DNA of 64,000 nt from Escherichia coli (lineage in GTDB: Bacteria; Pseudomonadota; Gammaproteobacteria; Enterobacterales; Enterobacteriaceae), in NCBI RefSeq assembly GCF_050920415.1, contig NZ_CP169309.1; one strand, given 5' to 3'. The number at the start of each line of letters is the position of its first letter. The stretch's first letter is position 1. Made by a program: the position numbers and the translations under genes. Positions 3,900 to 59,940 of the stretch are shown one piece after another. Below the pieces are notes generated by a model. The model made no database searches. It saw only the letters and a program-made list of their open reading frames with translations, and was not told the DNA's origin.

Positions 3900-4125
3900 C
3901 ATGGCGGATGCAGCCTACGGTTCGGCACAGACCTGTAGGCATGATAAGACGCGTCAGCGTCGCATCAGGCATTGTGCGTCGACTGCCGGATGCGGTGTGA
4001 CGCCTTATCCGGCTTACGGTTCGGCACAGACTTGTAGGCATGATAAGACGCGTCAGCGTCGCATCAGGCATTGTGCGTCGACTGCCGGATGCGGTGTGAA
4101 CGCCTTATCCGGCTTACGAAGGGCA
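3900..4125. repeat. tandem REP/BIME elements
   Basis: Two ~100-bp tandem copies of ...cggttcggcacagac(c/t)tgtaggcatgataagacgcgtcagcgtcgcatcaggcattgtgcgtcgactgccggatgcggtgtga(a)cgccttatccggc... ORFs 3901..4263 and 3730..4071 are translations of the repeat. Confidence 0.8.
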
Positions 4126-36962: not shown

Positions 36963-37264
36963 ACCCCGTCTCCCGTTATCCGGAAACTGACAACAATAAA
37001 AAAGCCACCCGTTAATTACTGATGGCTCTGATGCATAAACGTCATCATTCCTGACCGTTATGATTGACAATGGTTATCATTTTTATATAAAAATACTCCC
37101 GATATGTGTTACATATCATTTCTCCACGGGGAATATCCCCACGCCAGCGTCAGACTCGTTTTCCCGTTCTCTTCTGTGCTGGCGTTTTTTTTATTATGAT
37201 GTCGGTACATTTATCTCCAGCACCAGGCTTTCAATCTCAACACCATACGCGGAATTTTTGGGCG

Positions 37265-37291
37265 TAAAAAATCCCCTCCGGTGAGGGGATT
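37265..37291 (-). terminator. intrinsic terminator closing the TerB-like module
   Basis: aatcccctc/gaggggatt 9-bp stem followed by T6 on the minus strand. Confidence 0.7.
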
Positions 37292-37523
37292 TGCTTATGT
37301 AAACATTTACACTGCTTACCTGCATGGTGCCGGGTGCCTCCCGGTGAATTCAGTATCAGCACCTGAATCCGCAATTATCCCATATACCTACTTGCTGATT
37401 GCCCCTCCGCACAGGGGGATTCACCATGCGAAATTTTTTTAACAAATGCTCAGTCTGACAGGCAACTGTCAACTGGCTGAATTGTGAGACATTTAAAATT
37501 TTCGGGGCGTAACTGATACCCGG

Positions 37524-38289: not shown

Positions 38290-38366
38290 TGGCGCGTTGT
38301 ACTGGATTCGAACCAGTGACCGATTGCTTAGAAGGCAATTGCTCTGTCCGACTGAGCTAACAACGC
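38290..38366 (-). tRNA. tRNA-Arg (anticodon UCU, reads AGA)
   Basis: 77 nt: GCGTTGTTAGCTCAGTCGGACAGAGCAATTGCCTTCTAAGCAATCGGTCACTGGTTCGAATCCAGTACAACGCGCCA. It folds into a clean cloverleaf with anticodon loop CTTCTAA, and it resembles argU. Confidence 0.9.
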
Positions 38367-38467: not shown

Positions 38468-38542
38468 TGGTGGCCCTGCTGGATTTGAACCAGCGACCTG
38501 GCGATTATGAGTCGCTCACTCTCACCACTGAGCTAAAGGGCC
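38468..38542 (-). tRNA. tRNA with CAU anticodon, ileX-like (tRNA-Ile2/Met)
   Basis: 75 nt: GGCCCTTTAGCTCAGTGGTGAGAGTGAGCGACTCATAATCGCCAGGTCGCTGGTTCAAATCCAGCAGGGCCACCA. By eye it is very close to E. coli ileX, and the acceptor stem is one base short. Confidence 0.8.
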
Positions 38543-38582
38543 GGGCGCAGGATAATAACGGTACGTAACTAATTCTGCAATA

Positions 38583-46574: not shown

Positions 46575-47722
46575 TTGCGCCCCCTTACCTCGGAAGAGTT
46601 CAGCGACGAATGAATAAGACGGGCAAGAAATGCCGCATCGTTAATTCGGTCATACAGACTTACAGCCAGCGGTGATTCAGCTTTTTCCAGCATGGGATAA
46701 AGCTGCTGCAACCAGACCTGATGAATTGATGAAATGTAGGAATAGAGTACGCTGGCGTTATGTGCAACGTCGCTCGGTACAGCGGGCTTTGAAAGCTGTT
46801 TCTCCATCTGGTTAAAGGCATTGATGTATGCCTCTTTGAACTGGGCAGCACGTTTACCCGTGAAACCCATAGCAAGAAACGCAAAACCGTCGCGGGTTAT
46901 TTGATAGCAAGGTAGTTTGCGGCCTGTGCAATCGGTGTAATCACTCACCGAAAAATTGCGGGCAGTGAATGATGCGGAGCATTCAAGCGTGCGGATCTTT
47001 TTCAGTACATCGTCATGACGTTTGGAGAAGAAGTTGGCAACAGCCAGGGATGAAGTAACAGCCTGACCATCAACGATGGCAATTTCAGGTTGAGTGAGGG
47101 TTGGGATCGTAGCCATGATGGCAGCCTCTTTGGTGATTTTTAATAACTCACCACCAAGGCTTTCCACGACCTTATTGGTGGTGAGACGTACAGGGGTGGA
47201 AATACCGGTCACCAAAGAACCCGGCCCAACCGAAGTTGGCCCTGCACGCCCCACCATAATTTGGGCGTAATGCTGCTCATGACACAAAAAAACCGCAAGA
47301 GCGCGGTTGTGCGCTTTGGTGAATTCCGGGTTTCCACGCCCGGCACCCGCTTTATAAGGTGCCTGAACAGTGTAACGTCCCGGAATGGCAGAATCAATGT
47401 GCTGGTGGTCCTTCACACTCAACAAAATCACGCCTGAATTTCCACAAAGGGCTAAAGCACTCATGCGGGTAGTCTTTGCGAAGATAGATAACGCGCTGTG
47501 TTTCTGGCTCCCAACGAATAACATGAACATAAAGTCCTCTTCCGTCACGAAACCAGCGGTTAAGTTCCTGCACAACTCGCCCCCCACAGTCAGGTAAAGT
47601 TCTCTGTGGTTACTTACAGCCAGGAGATTTGGTAATCTGCATTCATGCCGTAACAACAGGTGTTCAGCGACGCTGACCACCAGCTGTTGCGACAAATGGT
47701 TATTTGCCGTTAAACTGTTCAT
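46571..47722 (-). CDS. Rha-family phage regulatory protein with an unrecognised 193-aa N-terminal extension
   Basis: The C-terminal half from MATIPTLTQPEIAIVDGQAVTSSLAVANFFSKRHDDVLKKIRTLE... (internal ATG 47143, RBS agagg) is a typical Rha N-terminus. The same frame is open upstream to ATG 47722, which overlaps the previous stop. Confidence 0.6.
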   Translation of the reverse strand: MNSLTANNHLSQQLVVSVAEHLLLRHECRLPNLLAVSNHRELYLTVGGELCRNLTAGFVTEEDFMFMLFVGSQKHSALSIFAKTTRMSALALCGNSGVILLSVKDHQHIDSAIPGRYTVQAPYKAGAGRGNPEFTKAHNRALAVFLCHEQHYAQIMVGRAGPTSVGPGSLVTGISTPVRLTTNKVVESLGGELLKITKEAAIMATIPTLTQPEIAIVDGQAVTSSLAVANFFSKRHDDVLKKIRTLECSASFTARNFSVSDYTDCTGRKLPCYQITRDGFAFLAMGFTGKRAAQFKEAYINAFNQMEKQLSKPAVPSDVAHNASVLYSYISSIHQVWLQQLYPMLEKAESPLAVSLYDRINDAAFLARLIHSSLNSSEVRGRK

Positions 47723-48604: not shown

Positions 48605-49279
48605 ATGAAAACAGTCCATGACATCCGGCGGTCTAACGCCAGAAAACTGAGAGATGGTGTTGGCGGGAATTCTTCCTTTGCCACCATGATTGATCGCGAA
48701 CCAACCCAGACCAGCAGGTTTATGGGAGATGGTGCTACTAAAAATATCGGTGACAGCATGGCACGGCACATCGAAAAATGTTTCGACCTGCCTGTCGGAT
48801 GGCTTGATCAAGAACACCAGACAACGAACATCACAAAAAAACCTGATGTTTCAATCACTAATAAACAAATAACGTTAGTCCCTGTCATATCATGGGTACA
48901 GGCCGGAGCATGGAAAGAAGTTGGCTATTCTGAGGTTGATTTGAGCACAACAGAAACATATCCCTGCCCTGTACCCTGTGGCGAAATGACTTATATATTG
49001 AGGGTGATTGGTGATTCAATGATTGATGAGTACCGTCCGGGGGACATGATTTTTGTCGATCCAGAAGTACCAGCCTGCCACGGCGATGACGTTATTGCAT
49101 TGATGCACGATACAGGTGAAACCACCTTCAAAAGGTTGATAGAAGACGGGACACAGCGTTATCTCAAAGCATTAAACCCCAACTGGCCTGAGCCTTACAT
49201 TAAGATAAACGGTAATTGCTCTATCATTGGTACAGTTATTTTCTCAGGAAAACCAAGAAGATACAAAATTAAAGCCTGA
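48605..49279 (+). CDS. cI: CI-type repressor (HTH + S24 LexA-like autopeptidase)
   Basis: 224 aa with an N-terminal HTH. The C-terminal S24 domain has an AG site (WVQAGAW), a GDSM Ser and TFKRL Lys. Confidence 0.85.
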   Translation: MKTVHDIRRSNARKLRDGVGGNSSFATMIDREPTQTSRFMGDGATKNIGDSMARHIEKCFDLPVGWLDQEHQTTNITKKPDVSITNKQITLVPVISWVQAGAWKEVGYSEVDLSTTETYPCPVPCGEMTYILRVIGDSMIDEYRPGDMIFVDPEVPACHGDDVIALMHDTGETTFKRLIEDGTQRYLKALNPNWPEPYIKINGNCSIIGTVIFSGKPRRYKIKA

Positions 49280-49291
49280 TCAATGTCTATG

Positions 49292-49315
49292 AACCTGCTT
49301 CGGCAGGTTTTTTTA
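49292..49315 (+). terminator. intrinsic terminator after cI
   Basis: aacctgc/gcaggtt stem with a ttcg loop, then a T-run. Confidence 0.75.
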
Positions 49316-49318
49316 TAC

Positions 49319-49363
49319 TTGACAATGTACCATTAAGATACATAATGTACCTGCATAAGATAT
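49319..49363 (+). promoter_or_regulatory. PL with two operators
   Basis: TTGACA (49319-49324), 16 nt, CATAAT (49341-49346). Operators atgtaccattaagatacat (49325-49343) and atgtacctgcataagatat (49345-49363) share the ATGTACC half-site with OR. Confidence 0.6.
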
Positions 49364-49428
49364 CGAACAGGCAGGACGCCCACGAAGTAGCCGTCCGGGG
49401 CATACGAAGACCGGAATGGTTCGTAAAT

Positions 49429-49451
49429 AAAAAAGCGCCCAAGTGGACGCT
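49429..49451 (-). terminator. intrinsic terminator of the antisense moron
   Basis: On the minus strand: agcgtcc/gggcgct stem with an actt loop, then T6. Confidence 0.7.
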
Positions 49452-49474
49452 TCACTTTTGAACTGGATTTATAA

Positions 49475-49684
49475 TCAATTATTTTCTTCATAAATGTTTT
49501 GTAATGTATTTATGAGATTTGGTATTTCTTTTATGGGAAAAGAATATATTGGACTTTCGATAATTTTATCAGATTCAAATGGTGGTTGTTTGCAGGACAG
49601 TTGAACTATAACTGAATTATGATCTTTAACTGGCACACAGTACCAACCACATACATCAAAAACAGGAGTATTTTGATTATCCAT
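49475..49684 (-). CDS. hypothetical 69-aa protein, AT-rich moron antisense to the PL transcript
   Basis: ATG 49684 with RBS gagga: MDNQNTPVFDVCGWYCVPVKDHNSVIVQLSCKQPPFESDKIIESPIYSFPIKEIPNLINTLQNIYEENN. It has its own terminator. No family recognised. Confidence 0.55.
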   Translation of the reverse strand: MDNQNTPVFDVCGWYCVPVKDHNSVIVQLSCKQPPFESDKIIESPIYSFPIKEIPNLINTLQNIYEENN

Positions 49685-49980
49685 TATGTCCTCGACAACT
49701 AAAAACACTGCGTACAAACCTCAAAAGCAGGGAGTTATTTATAAAATTTCATAAAGAATAATTACTGATAGCGACAATTCATTGTTCTTGAATTTTGAAA
49801 AATAGCAAGACAAAACAATGTAAACTTATTTAAGAAAAGTTCTTATTATGTAAACAAAACAACCAATTCGTTATATAGGAAAAACAAATAGTACGCAAGA
49901 AAATATTCAACAGGGGTATTACATTCAACCATAAGAGTAATCGTCTCTTTGGTAACTAATACCGAACATTTTATTGTAAC

Positions 49981-50528
49981 ACGTCGTATGGCACATGCGT
50001 CGTTAGCGGTCTGGGGACGTTAAAGGGGACAATCCACTCCTTGCTCGGGCAAACAAACCAGGTAGCCGGAATGTGCAAGTCAATGATGATGCTGATAAGA
50101 CGCCTAACCAGCGTGGCGATCCGGTTTGACGCCTGGGAAGAGACCAGGGTGCAACGATGAGGGCATTTATGGAGCCGCGACAAAGTGTGGTGCCATAACT
50201 GGCTAAGTGCTCTCAGCGTTGTGGTAATCCGCGAAATGGCGCGGCGGTAAGTATGGCGGGGTTACTCTTTCCCCGTTGAGGACACCGGATTGTCAGGTTG
50301 ACCATACGCCTGAGTGACAACCCCACCACAACAGCCACTGCTTTGGCGGTACCAGCTTGTACCCTTGCTTCCGGCTGGTACCGTCCTTTTTACAAAACAG
50401 AGAAGAGCATCACCGGACGACGGGCTCATAACCCAATCCATCCGGGCGGCTGCCACCGCAGGTGTTCTTCTCTGTTTTGTGGAGAAACCAACCGGCCTTG
50501 CAGGGTCGATATGATGAGGAGCAGCAAA
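49981..50528 (+). ncRNA. candidate structured leader / cis-acting RNA of the early-left operon
   Basis: No credible ORF on either strand. Long helices are visible by eye: 50392-50409 with 50463-50480, 50345-50356 with 50374-50385, and several 5-bp GC hairpins. It lies between PL and the first RBS-bearing gene. Confidence 0.3.
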
Positions 50529-50891
50529 ATGGCTAGCGAACGCAGTACTGATGTGCAGGCATTTATCGGGGAGCTGGACGGCGGCGTATTTGAAACCAAA
50601 ATCGGCGCAGTTCTCAGTGAAGTCGCTTCCGGTGTGATGAACACGAAAACCAAAGGTAAGGTCTCACTCAACCTGGAAATCGAACCATTTGATGAGAACC
50701 GTGTGAAAATCAAACACAAACTCTCATATGTTCGCCCGACTAACCGCGGGAAAATTTCCGAAGAAGACACCACCGAAACGCCGATGTATGTCAATCGCGG
50801 TGGTCGCCTGACTATTCTGCAGGAAGACCAGGGACAATTACTGACTCTTGCCGGTGAACCTGACGGAAAACTCCGCGCAGCAGGTCATTAA
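50529..50891 (+). CDS. YfdP-like protein
   Basis: 120 aa from ATG 50529 (RBS gaggag): MASERSTDVQAFIGELDGGVFETKIGAVLSEVASGVMNTKTKGKVSLNLEIEPFDENRVKIKHKL... The ORF-track TTG start at 50298 is discounted. Confidence 0.7.
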   Translation: MASERSTDVQAFIGELDGGVFETKIGAVLSEVASGVMNTKTKGKVSLNLEIEPFDENRVKIKHKLSYVRPTNRGKISEEDTTETPMYVNRGGRLTILQEDQGQLLTLAGEPDGKLRAAGH

Positions 50892-59329: not shown

Positions 59330-59495
<166 letters not shown>

Positions 59496-59617: not shown

Positions 59618-59704
59618 GCGAAGGTGGCGGAATTGGTAGACGCGCTAGCTTCAGGTGTTAGTGTCCTTACGGACGTGGGGGTTCAAGTCCCCCCCCTCGC
59701 ACCA
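59618..59704 (+). tRNA. leuQ: tRNA-Leu (CAG)
   Basis: 87-nt class II tRNA: GCGAAGGTGGCGGAATTGGTAGACGCGCTAGCTTCAGGTGTTAGTGTCCTTACGGACGTGGGGGTTCAAGTCCCCCCCCTCGCACCA. Confidence 0.95.
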
Positions 59705-59732
59705 AAAACCACGTTGATATTGCTCGCACTGG

Positions 59733-59819
59733 GCGAAGGTGGCGGAATTGGTAGACGCGCTAGCTTCAGGTGTTAGTGTTCTTACGGACGTGGGGGTTCA
59801 AGTCCCCCCCCTCGCACCA
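59733..59819 (+). tRNA. leuP: tRNA-Leu (CAG)
   Basis: Second copy, with one base difference in the variable arm (gtgttctt). Confidence 0.95.
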
Positions 59820-59853
59820 AACGAGGCGATATCAAAAAAAGTAAGATGACTGT

Positions 59854-59940
59854 GCGAAGGTGGCGGAATTGGTAGACGCGCTAGCTTCAGGTGTTAGTGT
59901 CCTTACGGACGTGGGGGTTCAAGTCCCCCCCCTCGCACCA
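59854..59940 (+). tRNA. leuV: tRNA-Leu (CAG)
   Basis: Third copy, identical to the first. Confidence 0.95.

Follow-up and report, generated by a model that had tools for sequence, protein, structure and literature searches.

Exchangeable structured RNA modules form the early leader of an Escherichia coli lambdoid prophage and may include a small RNA with a copied host seed

The DNA analyzed here (the window) is a stretch of 64,000 nucleotides (nt) from Escherichia coli contig NZ_CP169309.1 (assembly GCF_050920415.1), and it contains the immunity region of a lambdoid prophage. Between the early-left promoter (PL) and yfdP, the first early-left gene, lies a block (positions 49974-50528) that an earlier note, made from the sequence alone, had proposed to be one large RNA. 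We find instead a mosaic of four modules with separate distributions, the middle part of which is homologous to the dicF locus of the E. coli K-12 prophage Qin. Three modules, termed A, B and C, have covarying structure. Module B occupies a slot that holds tRNAs or tRNA-like elements in relatives, and the remaining module is a short cassette whose single-stranded 5' segment is identical to the seed of a host small RNA (sRNA). In relatives, the chain stands directly behind PL. We lean toward the reading that the PL leader is processed into noncoding RNAs (ncRNAs), including a trans-acting sRNA with a swapped seed, and that the terminator of the cassette and the long hairpin of module C also gate yfdP.

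The block has a GC content of 55-57% and 4-11 stop codons in each plus-strand frame, and its only plus-strand open reading frames (ORFs) begin with TTG or GTG and are unsupported. Its plus strand has a predicted minimum free energy (MFE) of -223.9 kcal/mol, compared with -193.6 +/- 7.6 kcal/mol in shuffled sequences (z = -3.97); for the minus strand, z = -3.02. The ORF-free, hairpin-dense block of normal or high GC content described by the earlier note is thus confirmed, and the helices that it had listed by eye are real. The helix 50392-50409/50463-50480 reaches 22-25 base pairs (bp), and 50345-50356/50374-50385 is a hairpin of 12-13 bp and -23 kcal/mol that is followed by five T. The ccgcg/cgcgg and cgggg/ccccg hairpins belong to module B, and the gacgcct and cctgg/ccagg segments to module A. 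Covariation and Rfam had been proposed as checks; across relatives the helices are kept by compensatory changes, and no Rfam family covers any part of the block. This negative result holds for A, B, the cassette and C in the window at gathering thresholds, in the region at E ≤ 10, and in seven diverse relatives. Together, composition, folding and covariation support a noncoding structured RNA under selection.

When 5,426 complete E. coli genomes were searched, different parts of the block matched different sets of genomes. Positions 50218-50324 match K-12 between ydfC and dicB, just 5' of DicF, positions 49981-50225 match the region immediately 5' of a prophage tRNA-Arg gene, and positions 50343-50530 match many more yfdP loci. 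Module A is found alone in P1, P7 and D6, and in Uetakeviruses such as phiV10, SPN1S and Tyrion; module B is found alone in Qin and P1; and the cassette scaffold is found together with module C in SfV and SfII. Module C is also present in ST64B and in Klebsiella phage Kp4866-6, and LLS matches only the 5' half of C in the phage search. The four modules also occur apart in other phages and, to judge from these distributions, are exchanged as units.

Immediately downstream of module B, a candidate sRNA cassette lies where DicF lies in Qin. In DicF's place are TTTGGCGGTA.CAG, a hairpin and a T-run; read as RNA, the window continues after B with AGCCACUGCUUU, then a hairpin of -23 kcal/mol (the DicF hairpin has -15.9 kcal/mol) and five U. 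The seed, GCCACUGC..., is mostly unpaired locally, and of its nucleotides, 5-11 are paired in the 197-nt MFE structure, but only in an outermost helix of stop-gap type. Likeness to the dicF locus extends beyond the cassette to the upstream domain, the GGCGG...CCGCC hairpin with its U-run, and a repressor-controlled early operon with cI, Cro and CII neighbors. The DicF model (RF00039, threshold 48 bits) nevertheless gave no hit at E ≤ 10 in 49280-50700, whereas the K-12 control scored 76.7 bits. The RybB model (RF00110) and the AgvB and AsxR models (RF02702 and RF02703) also gave no hit at E ≤ 10. The DicF 5' seed, UUUCUGGUGA, is absent, with ~19-20 nt gone in the alignment with Qin. That alignment suggested a DicF locus whose seed had simply been deleted, an interpretation that was replaced because the remaining 11 nt equal the RybB seed and sister cassettes carry RprA seeds.

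The exchange of seeds is most evident in SfV, which is 98.4% identical to the window from 50344 on, through scaffold, module C and yfdP, and which has an RprA-type seed 5' of 50344. Other phages keep the cassette plan with other single strands. One recurrent strand was identified as the RprA seed through a literature search, and in LLS an independent sub-threshold hit to the Rfam RprA model was obtained. By phage, the seeds are those of RybB in the window; of RprA in SfV, Kp4866-6, LLS (with a different terminator hairpin) and mEp390, with a near-copy in ST64B; and of DicF in Qin. We matched 89 different seed regions against a set of 15 sRNA sequences (from PMC7311995 table A3, with DicF added). 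The RprA seed is present in the sense orientation, over 10-18 nt, in 27 distinct cassettes, and that of DicF in 12. The window-type seed shares 11 nt with RybB, starting at RybB nucleotide 1. Among shuffled seeds, a match of 11 nt was reached by 1 of 89 and one of 10 nt six times, and none was longer.

The RprA seed region, UUGCUGUGUGUAGUCUU, is found in sense over up to 18 nt in the PL-leader cassettes of SfV (L227), ST64B (L225) and Kp4866-6 (L226), and also in LLS (L228), mEp390 (L233) and ~20 IMG/VR or genome loci. As a separate observation, the 3' strand of module C contains UUUUGUGGAG (50473-50482), which is also present at RybB nucleotides 26-35 (CCAUUUUGUGGAGCCC). This second match to RybB, of 10 nt, follows the seed match at a distance of ~130 nt, and the two keep the order that they have in RybB; it may be due to chance.

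If the cassette yields an sRNA, its seed is predicted to pair where RybB pairs. On Salmonella ompF, the 13-nt seed of the window is predicted to form a duplex at the RybB site with -18.4 kcal/mol, the same value as for the RybB seed, and on ompA it does so at the RybB site with -18.1 kcal/mol, compared with -17.5 kcal/mol for RybB. The predicted duplex on tsx (-16.6 kcal/mol) is 9 nt from the RybB16 site, and pairing with ompN is weaker. A cassette with the RybB-type seed is present in 1353 of the 5426 complete E. coli genomes and is never annotated, and the scaffold alone is present in ~990 more.

Module B and the position that it occupies suggest how such an sRNA might be released. Module A almost always ends ...GUGCUCUC-AGCG-UUGUGG. 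Among 225 distinct contexts that follow A, 183 have GUUGUGG, and in 147 of these a complementary CCACAAC is found further on. The slot thus delimited contains B in 36 contexts, an unrelated element (B') in 36, a genuine tRNA-Arg in 39, and ~50 other inserts. Several of the inserts have canonical D- and T-arms, the acceptor stem UUGUGGU/ACCACAA, and a discriminator followed by CCA. They are classed by ARAGORN as insert-bearing tRNAs, and two of them score 43.9 and 29.7 bits with the Rfam tRNA model.

Module B has a 7-8-bp acceptor-type closing stem and a D-arm-like hairpin, and tRNAs are present in the homologous slot. From this slot, shared with tRNAs in relatives, we infer that B is tRNA-derived. 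At the place expected for a T-arm, it has a 9-bp stem with a 19-nt loop that pairs with GUAUGG as a pseudoknot. Over 107 nt, B is 93.5% identical to a segment of K-12 Qin that ends 25 nt before DicF, and it is the actual basis of the annotated 'dicF-like region' of P1. Three helices of B show compensatory changes: the closing stem has a U-A to C-G change and wobble changes, and both crossing helices carry one U-A to C-G change each. The long-known conserved sequence 5' of DicF thus occupies a tRNA slot, which suggests how such sRNAs may be cut from operon transcripts.

Several loci show how slots and modules adjoin. In Superficieibacter electus (L359), module A begins directly where a B'-type element ends (...CCACCACAAC). 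Cassettes form tandem arrays in L359, L273, L316 and L366; downstream of a slot cassette, at a distance of no more than ~90 nt, the last three have a second segment of the type of helix H6 of module A and a further GUUGUGG that opens a slot. GUUGUGG and CCACAAC, the boundary words, are met again at the junctions, one instance being ACAAAAC...GUUUUGUGG around module C.

Module A, at the 5' end of the chain, is a pseudoknotted RNA present in phages or prophages of at least 12 enterobacterial genera. A structure of seven helices, including the pseudoknot, was written by hand and tested on 100 sequences of less than 93% identity. Its 31 pairs are 98.4% paired, with changes on both sides in 15 of them. 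None of 500 shuffles reached any of five measures, and controls in which the partner was slid were 30-47% paired. The pseudoknot is AACC/GGUU in the window and CACC/GGUG in relatives. A further helix, GAGAGCAU/GUGCUCUC, surrounds a variable insert, and some variants compensate to GAUGGCUU/GAGUCAUC. The core, GGTAGCCGGAATGTGCAAG, is found in at least 240 IMG/VR stretches and in species-representative genomes of Kosakonia, Citrobacter, Klebsiella, Kluyvera, Enterobacter, Buttiauxella, Phytobacter, Pseudescherichia, Pseudocitrobacter, Superficieibacter, Escherichia and Candidatus Erwinia dacicola. Lambdoid carriers of A include cdtI, Ayreon, 2H10, mEp460 and Shiga toxin (Stx) 2c phages, and in P1, P7 and D6 it resides between tRNA-Ile and ban. 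The core is single in the window, and A is found at one place in each phage record.

Two likenesses were considered for module A and rejected. Many variants read UGCUCUUU in the 3' strand of H6, which resembles rrn boxA and might suggest a boxA or nut-like element, yet this strand is base-paired, and the likeness is lost in the compensatory variants that read GAGUCAUC. In the window this strand is at 50208-50218, and UGCUCUUU(CC), similar to the rrn/nut boxA core, is seen in variants such as L362, L371 and L359. A hammerhead or K-turn was considered for CGAUGAG...CUCAGCG, where the hammerhead core is not formed and an 11-bp helix with one covarying A-G mismatch fits better. It was also observed that in P1 (L003, AF234172, ~2685-2700), just after A and ~80 nt before the annotated start of ban, UUUUCUGGUGA matches the DicF seed. 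This match follows A in 14 of 14 P1-like copies and has no DicF scaffold behind it.

Module C begins in the T-run of the cassette and ends ~45 nt before the start codon of yfdP. Its consensus fold has 36 pairs in 19 sequences, with compensatory change in 8 of the 36. These sequences are from E. coli phages, SfV, ST64B, Kp4866-6, LLS, an IMG/VR viral contig, Phytobacter, Kosakonia and Pseudescherichia, and relatives of C are found in Salmonella, Klebsiella, Kosakonia and Pseudescherichia. The closing helix has 22-23 bp in the consensus and 25 bp in the MFE structure of the window; one arm has the invariant loop GACGGGCUCAUAACCCAAUCCA, and the second hairpin is variable. In Qin, a 21-bp helix begins 7 nt after the U-run of DicF and includes DicF nucleotide 72 in its 5' strand, and the 72-nt end of DicF has been reported to be generated by RNase III (PMC5069750). 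Because module C lies in the same place as this RNase III-cut helix, RNase III may, by analogy, cleave C as well.

The setting of the block is that of an early-left operon. Upstream lies a cI-type repressor gene (48605-49279, plus strand; phrog_4), and a family search of ORFs found Cro-like and CII-like genes on the strand opposite cI. A consensus scan places a PL-like promoter where the earlier note had seen one, and by the ORF list and family search yfdP, with its ATG at 50529, is the first plus-strand gene with a ribosome-binding site (RBS), again as that note had it. Phage Ayreon, which grows on K-12, has cI, the terminator, the promoter and, ~40 nt later, the block in the same order through to yfdP, with nothing between PL and module A; the same promoter is annotated in its record directly 5' of A. 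In mEp390, the repressor gene is followed by module A, and the genes after A differ from those of the window. This shared gene order supports the assignment of the block as leader of the repressor-controlled early-left operon. The absence of an N-like gene, also claimed earlier, holds for the PL-proximal region: the ORFs between PL and yfdP (49364-50528) have no N-type family match in the ORF list, PHROG or Pfam.

Relative to Ayreon, the window carries an insertion between PL and the block. It comprises a minus-strand ORF (the moron) with no family match in Pfam or PHROG, the hairpin-symmetric terminator of this ORF, and a spacer of 25-35% GC. A promoter belonging to the block itself was considered and rejected, since the consensus scan is negative and the candidates seen by eye just 5' of A are weak. 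Coordinates of all features are given in Table 1.

Table 1. Features of the early-left leader and its surroundings (positions in the window)
Feature	Position	Strand	Remark
cI gene terminator	49291-49310		
PL-like sigma-70 promoter, TTGACA-16-CATAAT	49319-49346	+	11/12 consensus match; directly after cI terminator
Insertion relative to phage Ayreon (minus-strand ORF, its terminator, AT-rich spacer)	49400-49973	-	outside the RNA modules; ~570 nt
Terminator of 80-aa ORF	49453-49432	-	
80-aa ORF	49475-49717	-	inside the insertion between PL and the block
Module A, conserved pseudoknotted RNA	49974-50218	+	fold tested on 100 relatives
A, helix H1	49982-49990 / 49994-50002	+	
A, helix H2	50007-50013 / 50059-50061 + 50065-50068	+	
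A, invariant 19-nt core GGTAGCCGGAATGTGCAAG	50061-50079	+	
A, pseudoknot AACC/GGTT	50106-50109 / 50123-50126	+	
A, helix H5	50132-50136 / 50144-50148	+	
A, helix H6	50156-50166 / 50207-50218	+	encloses variable insert
Module B, tRNA-like slot element	50219-50332	+	homologous to Qin segment 5' of DicF and to P1 'dicF-like region'
B, acceptor-type stem TTGTGGT/ACCACAA, then C50332	50219-50225 / 50325-50331	+	
B, D-arm-like hairpin CCGCG/CGCGG	within 50219-50332	+	
B, crossing helices GTATGG/CCATAC and TTGTCA/TGACAA	within 50219-50332	+	
Candidate 58-nt sRNA cassette	50334-50391	+	
Single-stranded seed GCCACTGCTTT	50334-50344	+	identical to RybB nt 1-11
Terminator hairpin	50345-50356 / 50374-50385	+	12-13 bp, -23 kcal/mol
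T-run, five T	50387-50391	+	
Module C, three-way junction	50387-50485	+	consensus of 19 sequences
C, stem P1, 22-25 bp	50387/50392-50414 / 50461-50485	+	
C, arm P2, CCGG/CCGG with invariant loop GACGGGCTCATAACCCAATCCA	within 50387-50485	+	
C, arm P3, GCGG/CCGC with variable loop	within 50387-50485	+	
Short hairpin before yfdP	50493-50498 / 50503-50508	+	relatives have a different hairpin there
RBS GAGGAG	50516-50521	+	ahead of yfdP
yfdP, first early-left ORF, followed by yfdQ and yfdR	50529-50891	+	phrog_204, phrog_210, phrog_318

The mechanism that we propose is as follows. Upon derepression, transcripts from PL would enter the leader; many would stop at the intrinsic terminator at 50391, and others would continue into yfdP. 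The tRNA-like module B would serve as a cleavage handle, cut by RNase P on its 5' side and by RNase E or exonucleases on its 3' side. Cleavage at B would separate module A from the downstream RNA and leave an sRNA of ~58 nt, whose 5' end at or near G50334 would read GCCACUGCUUU, the seed of host RybB. With Hfq, this sRNA would pair with RybB targets, which are mRNAs of outer-membrane proteins such as porins and receptors, much as DicF of Qin acts on ftsZ. In read-through RNA, RNase III would cut the long helix of module C, trimming the sRNA and resetting the 5' end of the yfdP mRNA.

Several points weigh against this proposal. Its cleavage sites, Hfq binding, targets and terminator leakiness are all read from conserved sequence and structure and go beyond them. 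Module B resembles a tRNA by virtue of the shared slot, the acceptor-type stem and the D-arm-like hairpin, and neither ARAGORN nor the Rfam tRNA model (RF00005) calls it (50219-50332). The match to RybB is only 11 nt long, and 1 of 89 shuffled seeds equaled that length somewhere in the sRNA set; what gives this match weight is where it lies, together with the parallel cases of RprA and DicF. The action of RybB depends on its extreme 5' end, and the phage seed may be less active if the phage RNA retains the upstream ACCACAACA or remains paired in the B stem. In the window itself, the moron between PL and module A has a partly bidirectional terminator (49453-49432) that may halt PL transcripts too, so PL-driven expression in this prophage may be reduced, and a consensus scan found no plus-strand promoter at 49720-50340, which includes the region just upstream of A. 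No activity is proposed for module A. Finally, no RNA from the block was found in Rfam or in the literature reachable by search.

An alternative is that the leader is only a gate in cis. The terminator would attenuate PL transcription, the hairpin of module C (through RNase III) and the hairpin before the RBS would set the stability and translation of yfdP mRNA, and the RybB-like stretch would be functionless, with A and B as baggage or stabilizers. Across phages, the terminator and module C are indeed the parts most tightly linked to yfdP, and C lies in the 5' untranslated region, close to the start codon. An RNase III-sensitive hairpin occupies the corresponding position in the lambda N leader, and Qin also has a long helix after DicF. 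However, C also precedes unrelated first genes (L067 and L081), and A is found jointly with the tRNA-like slot in operons and morons without yfdP. A pure attenuator, moreover, does not explain why seeds on one scaffold are swapped for seeds identical to those of host sRNAs (RprA up to 18 nt, DicF 20 nt, RybB 11 nt), and the homologous cassette encodes DicF, whose action in trans as an sRNA is established (PMC5069750). We therefore regard a role in cis alone as unlikely, although it fares best among the alternatives.

We consider it less probable still that module A, or the whole leader, is a cis-acting antiterminator of the HK022 put type, by which polymerase from PL would read through 50391 and later terminators without N. 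The leader does lie directly behind PL in N-less lambdoid phages, and a hairpin of -23 kcal/mol with a U-run separates it from all early-left genes. The invariant loops and pseudoknot of A are as expected of an RNA that binds a protein machine, and A is 5' of terminator-bearing cassettes in lambdoid and Uetakevirus contexts. The put-type order of promoter, A and terminators is seen in the window, Ayreon and mEp390. In P1, however, A comes after the dicF-like cassette with its terminator, within one operon, and between A and ban there is no terminator. No put-type copies after both early and late promoters were found: with a single copy of A per phage record, there is no second copy for PR or for the late operon. 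Many relatives have a genuine tRNA between A and the terminator, whose processing would cut A off the transcript, and put RNA must stay attached to polymerase. Qin and SfV, moreover, retain the terminator and downstream genes without A. Processive antitermination by A thus fits poorly and has no positive support. Of what the earlier note had offered, the location in the PL leader stands, given the position of the block in Ayreon, and its suggestions of PL transcript processing and of a phage ncRNA are close to the reading that we favor.

It is very improbable that the cassette is instead an anti-sRNA sponge like AgvB, in which CACAACA within ACCACAACAGCC (50325-50336) would trap the R1 seed of GcvB. 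CACAACA is the GcvB R1 target consensus carried by AgvB (PMC4104026), and the cassette is built like the AgvB/AsxR class, in which a short 5' part that varies is followed by a conserved 3' terminator of ~45 nt. However, the AgvB and AsxR Rfam models do not match, and the mature 5' end of DicF is downstream of the acceptor-type stem. CCACAAC is the 3' strand of that stem, which pairs with GUUGUGG in nearly all cassette types and reads GCUGCAAC in canonical DicF loci. This structural role as the 3' strand of the closing stem explains the presence of CACAACA, and the sponge was rejected.

That the block is a decayed or unrecognized protein-coding region can be dismissed almost entirely: a minus-strand ORF (50262-50456) matches phrog_3651 (E = 5e-37), a plus-strand GTG ORF (50314-50514) matches phrog_33599 (E = 1e-17), and hypothetical proteins are annotated across the block in some phage records, but these families have no known function, lie on opposite strands, overlap each other and have no Pfam match, while indels of 1, 2 and 25 nt distinguish relatives in C and the variable regions of A span lengths of 26-50 and 20-41 nt with no multiple-of-three pattern, one third of A-core sequences have no open frame at all, and substitutions pair across helices rather than falling at third codon positions. 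The minus-strand ORFs had already been taken for junk in the earlier note, a judgment that this pattern bears out. PHROGs 3651 and 33599, built from ORFs on opposite strands across B and C, probably derive from spurious ORF calls over conserved RNA, and the hypothetical proteins annotated there are probably not genes.

Beyond this prophage, we tentatively suggest that temperate enterobacterial phages share exchangeable early-leader ncRNA cassettes, consisting of module A as a new RNA class, a tRNA handle, an Hfq-type terminator scaffold and grafted host sRNA seeds, and that these cassettes issue counterfeit host signals. If so, DicF would be a member of a large phage sRNA cassette family that keeps its scaffold and swaps its seeds, some of them taken from RybB or RprA. 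Such signals would be sent upon induction or infection, here as an RybB-like shutdown of outer-membrane porins and receptors, and temperate phages would have a concrete way, open to test, of altering the regulation of host envelope and stress when induced. Of all complete E. coli genomes, a quarter would carry such a cassette, Stx2c phages included. Whatever their function, A and C covary, have invariant loops and are missing from Rfam, and they sit in well-studied phages such as P1 (between trnI and ban), SfV, ST64B and Stx phages. The dicF locus, the 'dicF-like region' of P1 and STnc100 are already known. Module A, module C, the tRNA slot and the cassettes with RybB or RprA seeds have no description in Rfam 15 or in the searched literature, which covered few subscription papers.

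Other RNAs were noted elsewhere in the window. C4 antisense RNA (83.6 bits) and isrK (67 bits) are direct neighbors at 47174-47362 on the minus strand, 3' of the CII-like gene in the rightward early operon. They constitute a P1/P7 immI-type RNA pair in a lambdoid prophage, and the pair is also present in the related locus L024. Hits to naRNA4 (of the repetitive extragenic palindromic type) and three tandem tRNA-Leu(CAG) genes were found at 3938-4114, 59396-59478 and 59618-59940. At least the tRNA-Leu(CAG) genes have the look of flanking chromosome, suggesting a short early-left arm for the prophage. A full-length STnc100 (148.7 bits) is located at 37260-37458 on the minus strand, beside tRNA-Arg(UCU) and tRNA-Met (38290-38366 and 38469-38543, both minus strand). 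It belongs to a second tRNA/sRNA cluster in the window, on the strand opposite the block.

Among known systems, the dicF locus of Qin (the ydfABC-dicF-dicB operon; RF00039) is one of the closest to the leader described here. Both are in a repressor-controlled early operon of an N-less lambdoid prophage, and both have the upstream structured domain, the scaffold TTTGGCGG with its hairpin and U-run, and a long helix right after the terminator and before the next ORF. The window differs in that the 20-nt DicF seed is missing and the single strand instead reads as that of RybB. It has module A upstream, which Qin does not; module C replaces an STnc100-like module; and yfdP replaces dicB.

RybB itself is a sigma-E-dependent core sRNA that represses mRNAs of outer-membrane proteins through its 5' end. 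Its first 11 nt, GCCACUGCUUU, are identical in the window, where the seed is likewise unpaired beside a terminator-type hairpin and is predicted to form duplexes at the RybB16 sites on ompF and ompA and near that on tsx. Past nucleotide 11 there is no similarity, and the Rfam RybB model is negative. Furthermore, RybB has its own sigma-E promoter, whereas the cassette forms part of a phage PL transcript, and its 5' end would need processing.

AgvB and AsxR are sRNAs of enterohemorrhagic E. coli prophages (Tree et al. 2014, PMC4104026). Their class and that of the candidate cassettes are both families of prophage sRNAs of very small size, in which a 5' part of 11-18 nt varies while the 3' terminator module is conserved, and in both the variable part relates to host sRNA networks. 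However, the scaffold sequence differs, and whereas AgvB and AsxR are complementary to host sRNAs and act as sponges, the cassette seeds copy host sRNA seeds and would act as mimics. AsxR is 3' of and antisense to stx2AB, and the class has been described at moron insertion sites, whereas the cassette lies in a PL leader.

Directly behind its C1-controlled ban promoters, the ban operon of P1 (AF234172) also has B together with a terminator-bearing cassette of sRNA type, and it carries A immediately after tRNA-Ile and before ban. The order is reversed relative to the window, with the B cassette first and A last, 2 kb apart and with tRNAs and genes between them. The P1 cassette has its own seed and hairpin, and the copy of A is unannotated in the record.

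The put RNA of HK022 resembles the leader in being a structured RNA just after an early promoter in a lambdoid phage without lambda-type N function. It is ~70 nt long, has two stem-loops and is found downstream of two promoters. The chain in the window is ~550 nt long and present in one copy per genome, and relatives of the leader have processing elements between it and the terminator. In this comparison with put, made by description, no link in function or sequence emerged. In lambda itself, N/nut antitermination involves a small basic N-like ORF first after PL, whereas the window has no such ORF at 49364-50528.

STnc100/PasD shares with the leader a closed multi-branch 5' domain followed by a single strand and a terminator. 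Its model (RF02076) has no match inside the block. In SfV and ST64B, sub-threshold STnc100-like sequences precede the sRNA cassette, at the place taken by A and B in the window; in Qin, one follows DicF, at the place of module C.

Lastly, small RNAs linked to tRNAs and cut by tRNA enzymes are known in the tRNA-microRNA units of murine gammaherpesvirus 68 and in the C4 RNA of P1 and P7, which is cut by RNase P. As proposed for the window, a tRNA or tRNA-like element is directly 5' of a small regulatory RNA, a likeness of architecture only. By analogy, these systems suggest that tRNA-processing enzymes may also define the ends of the small RNAs encoded in phage early leaders.

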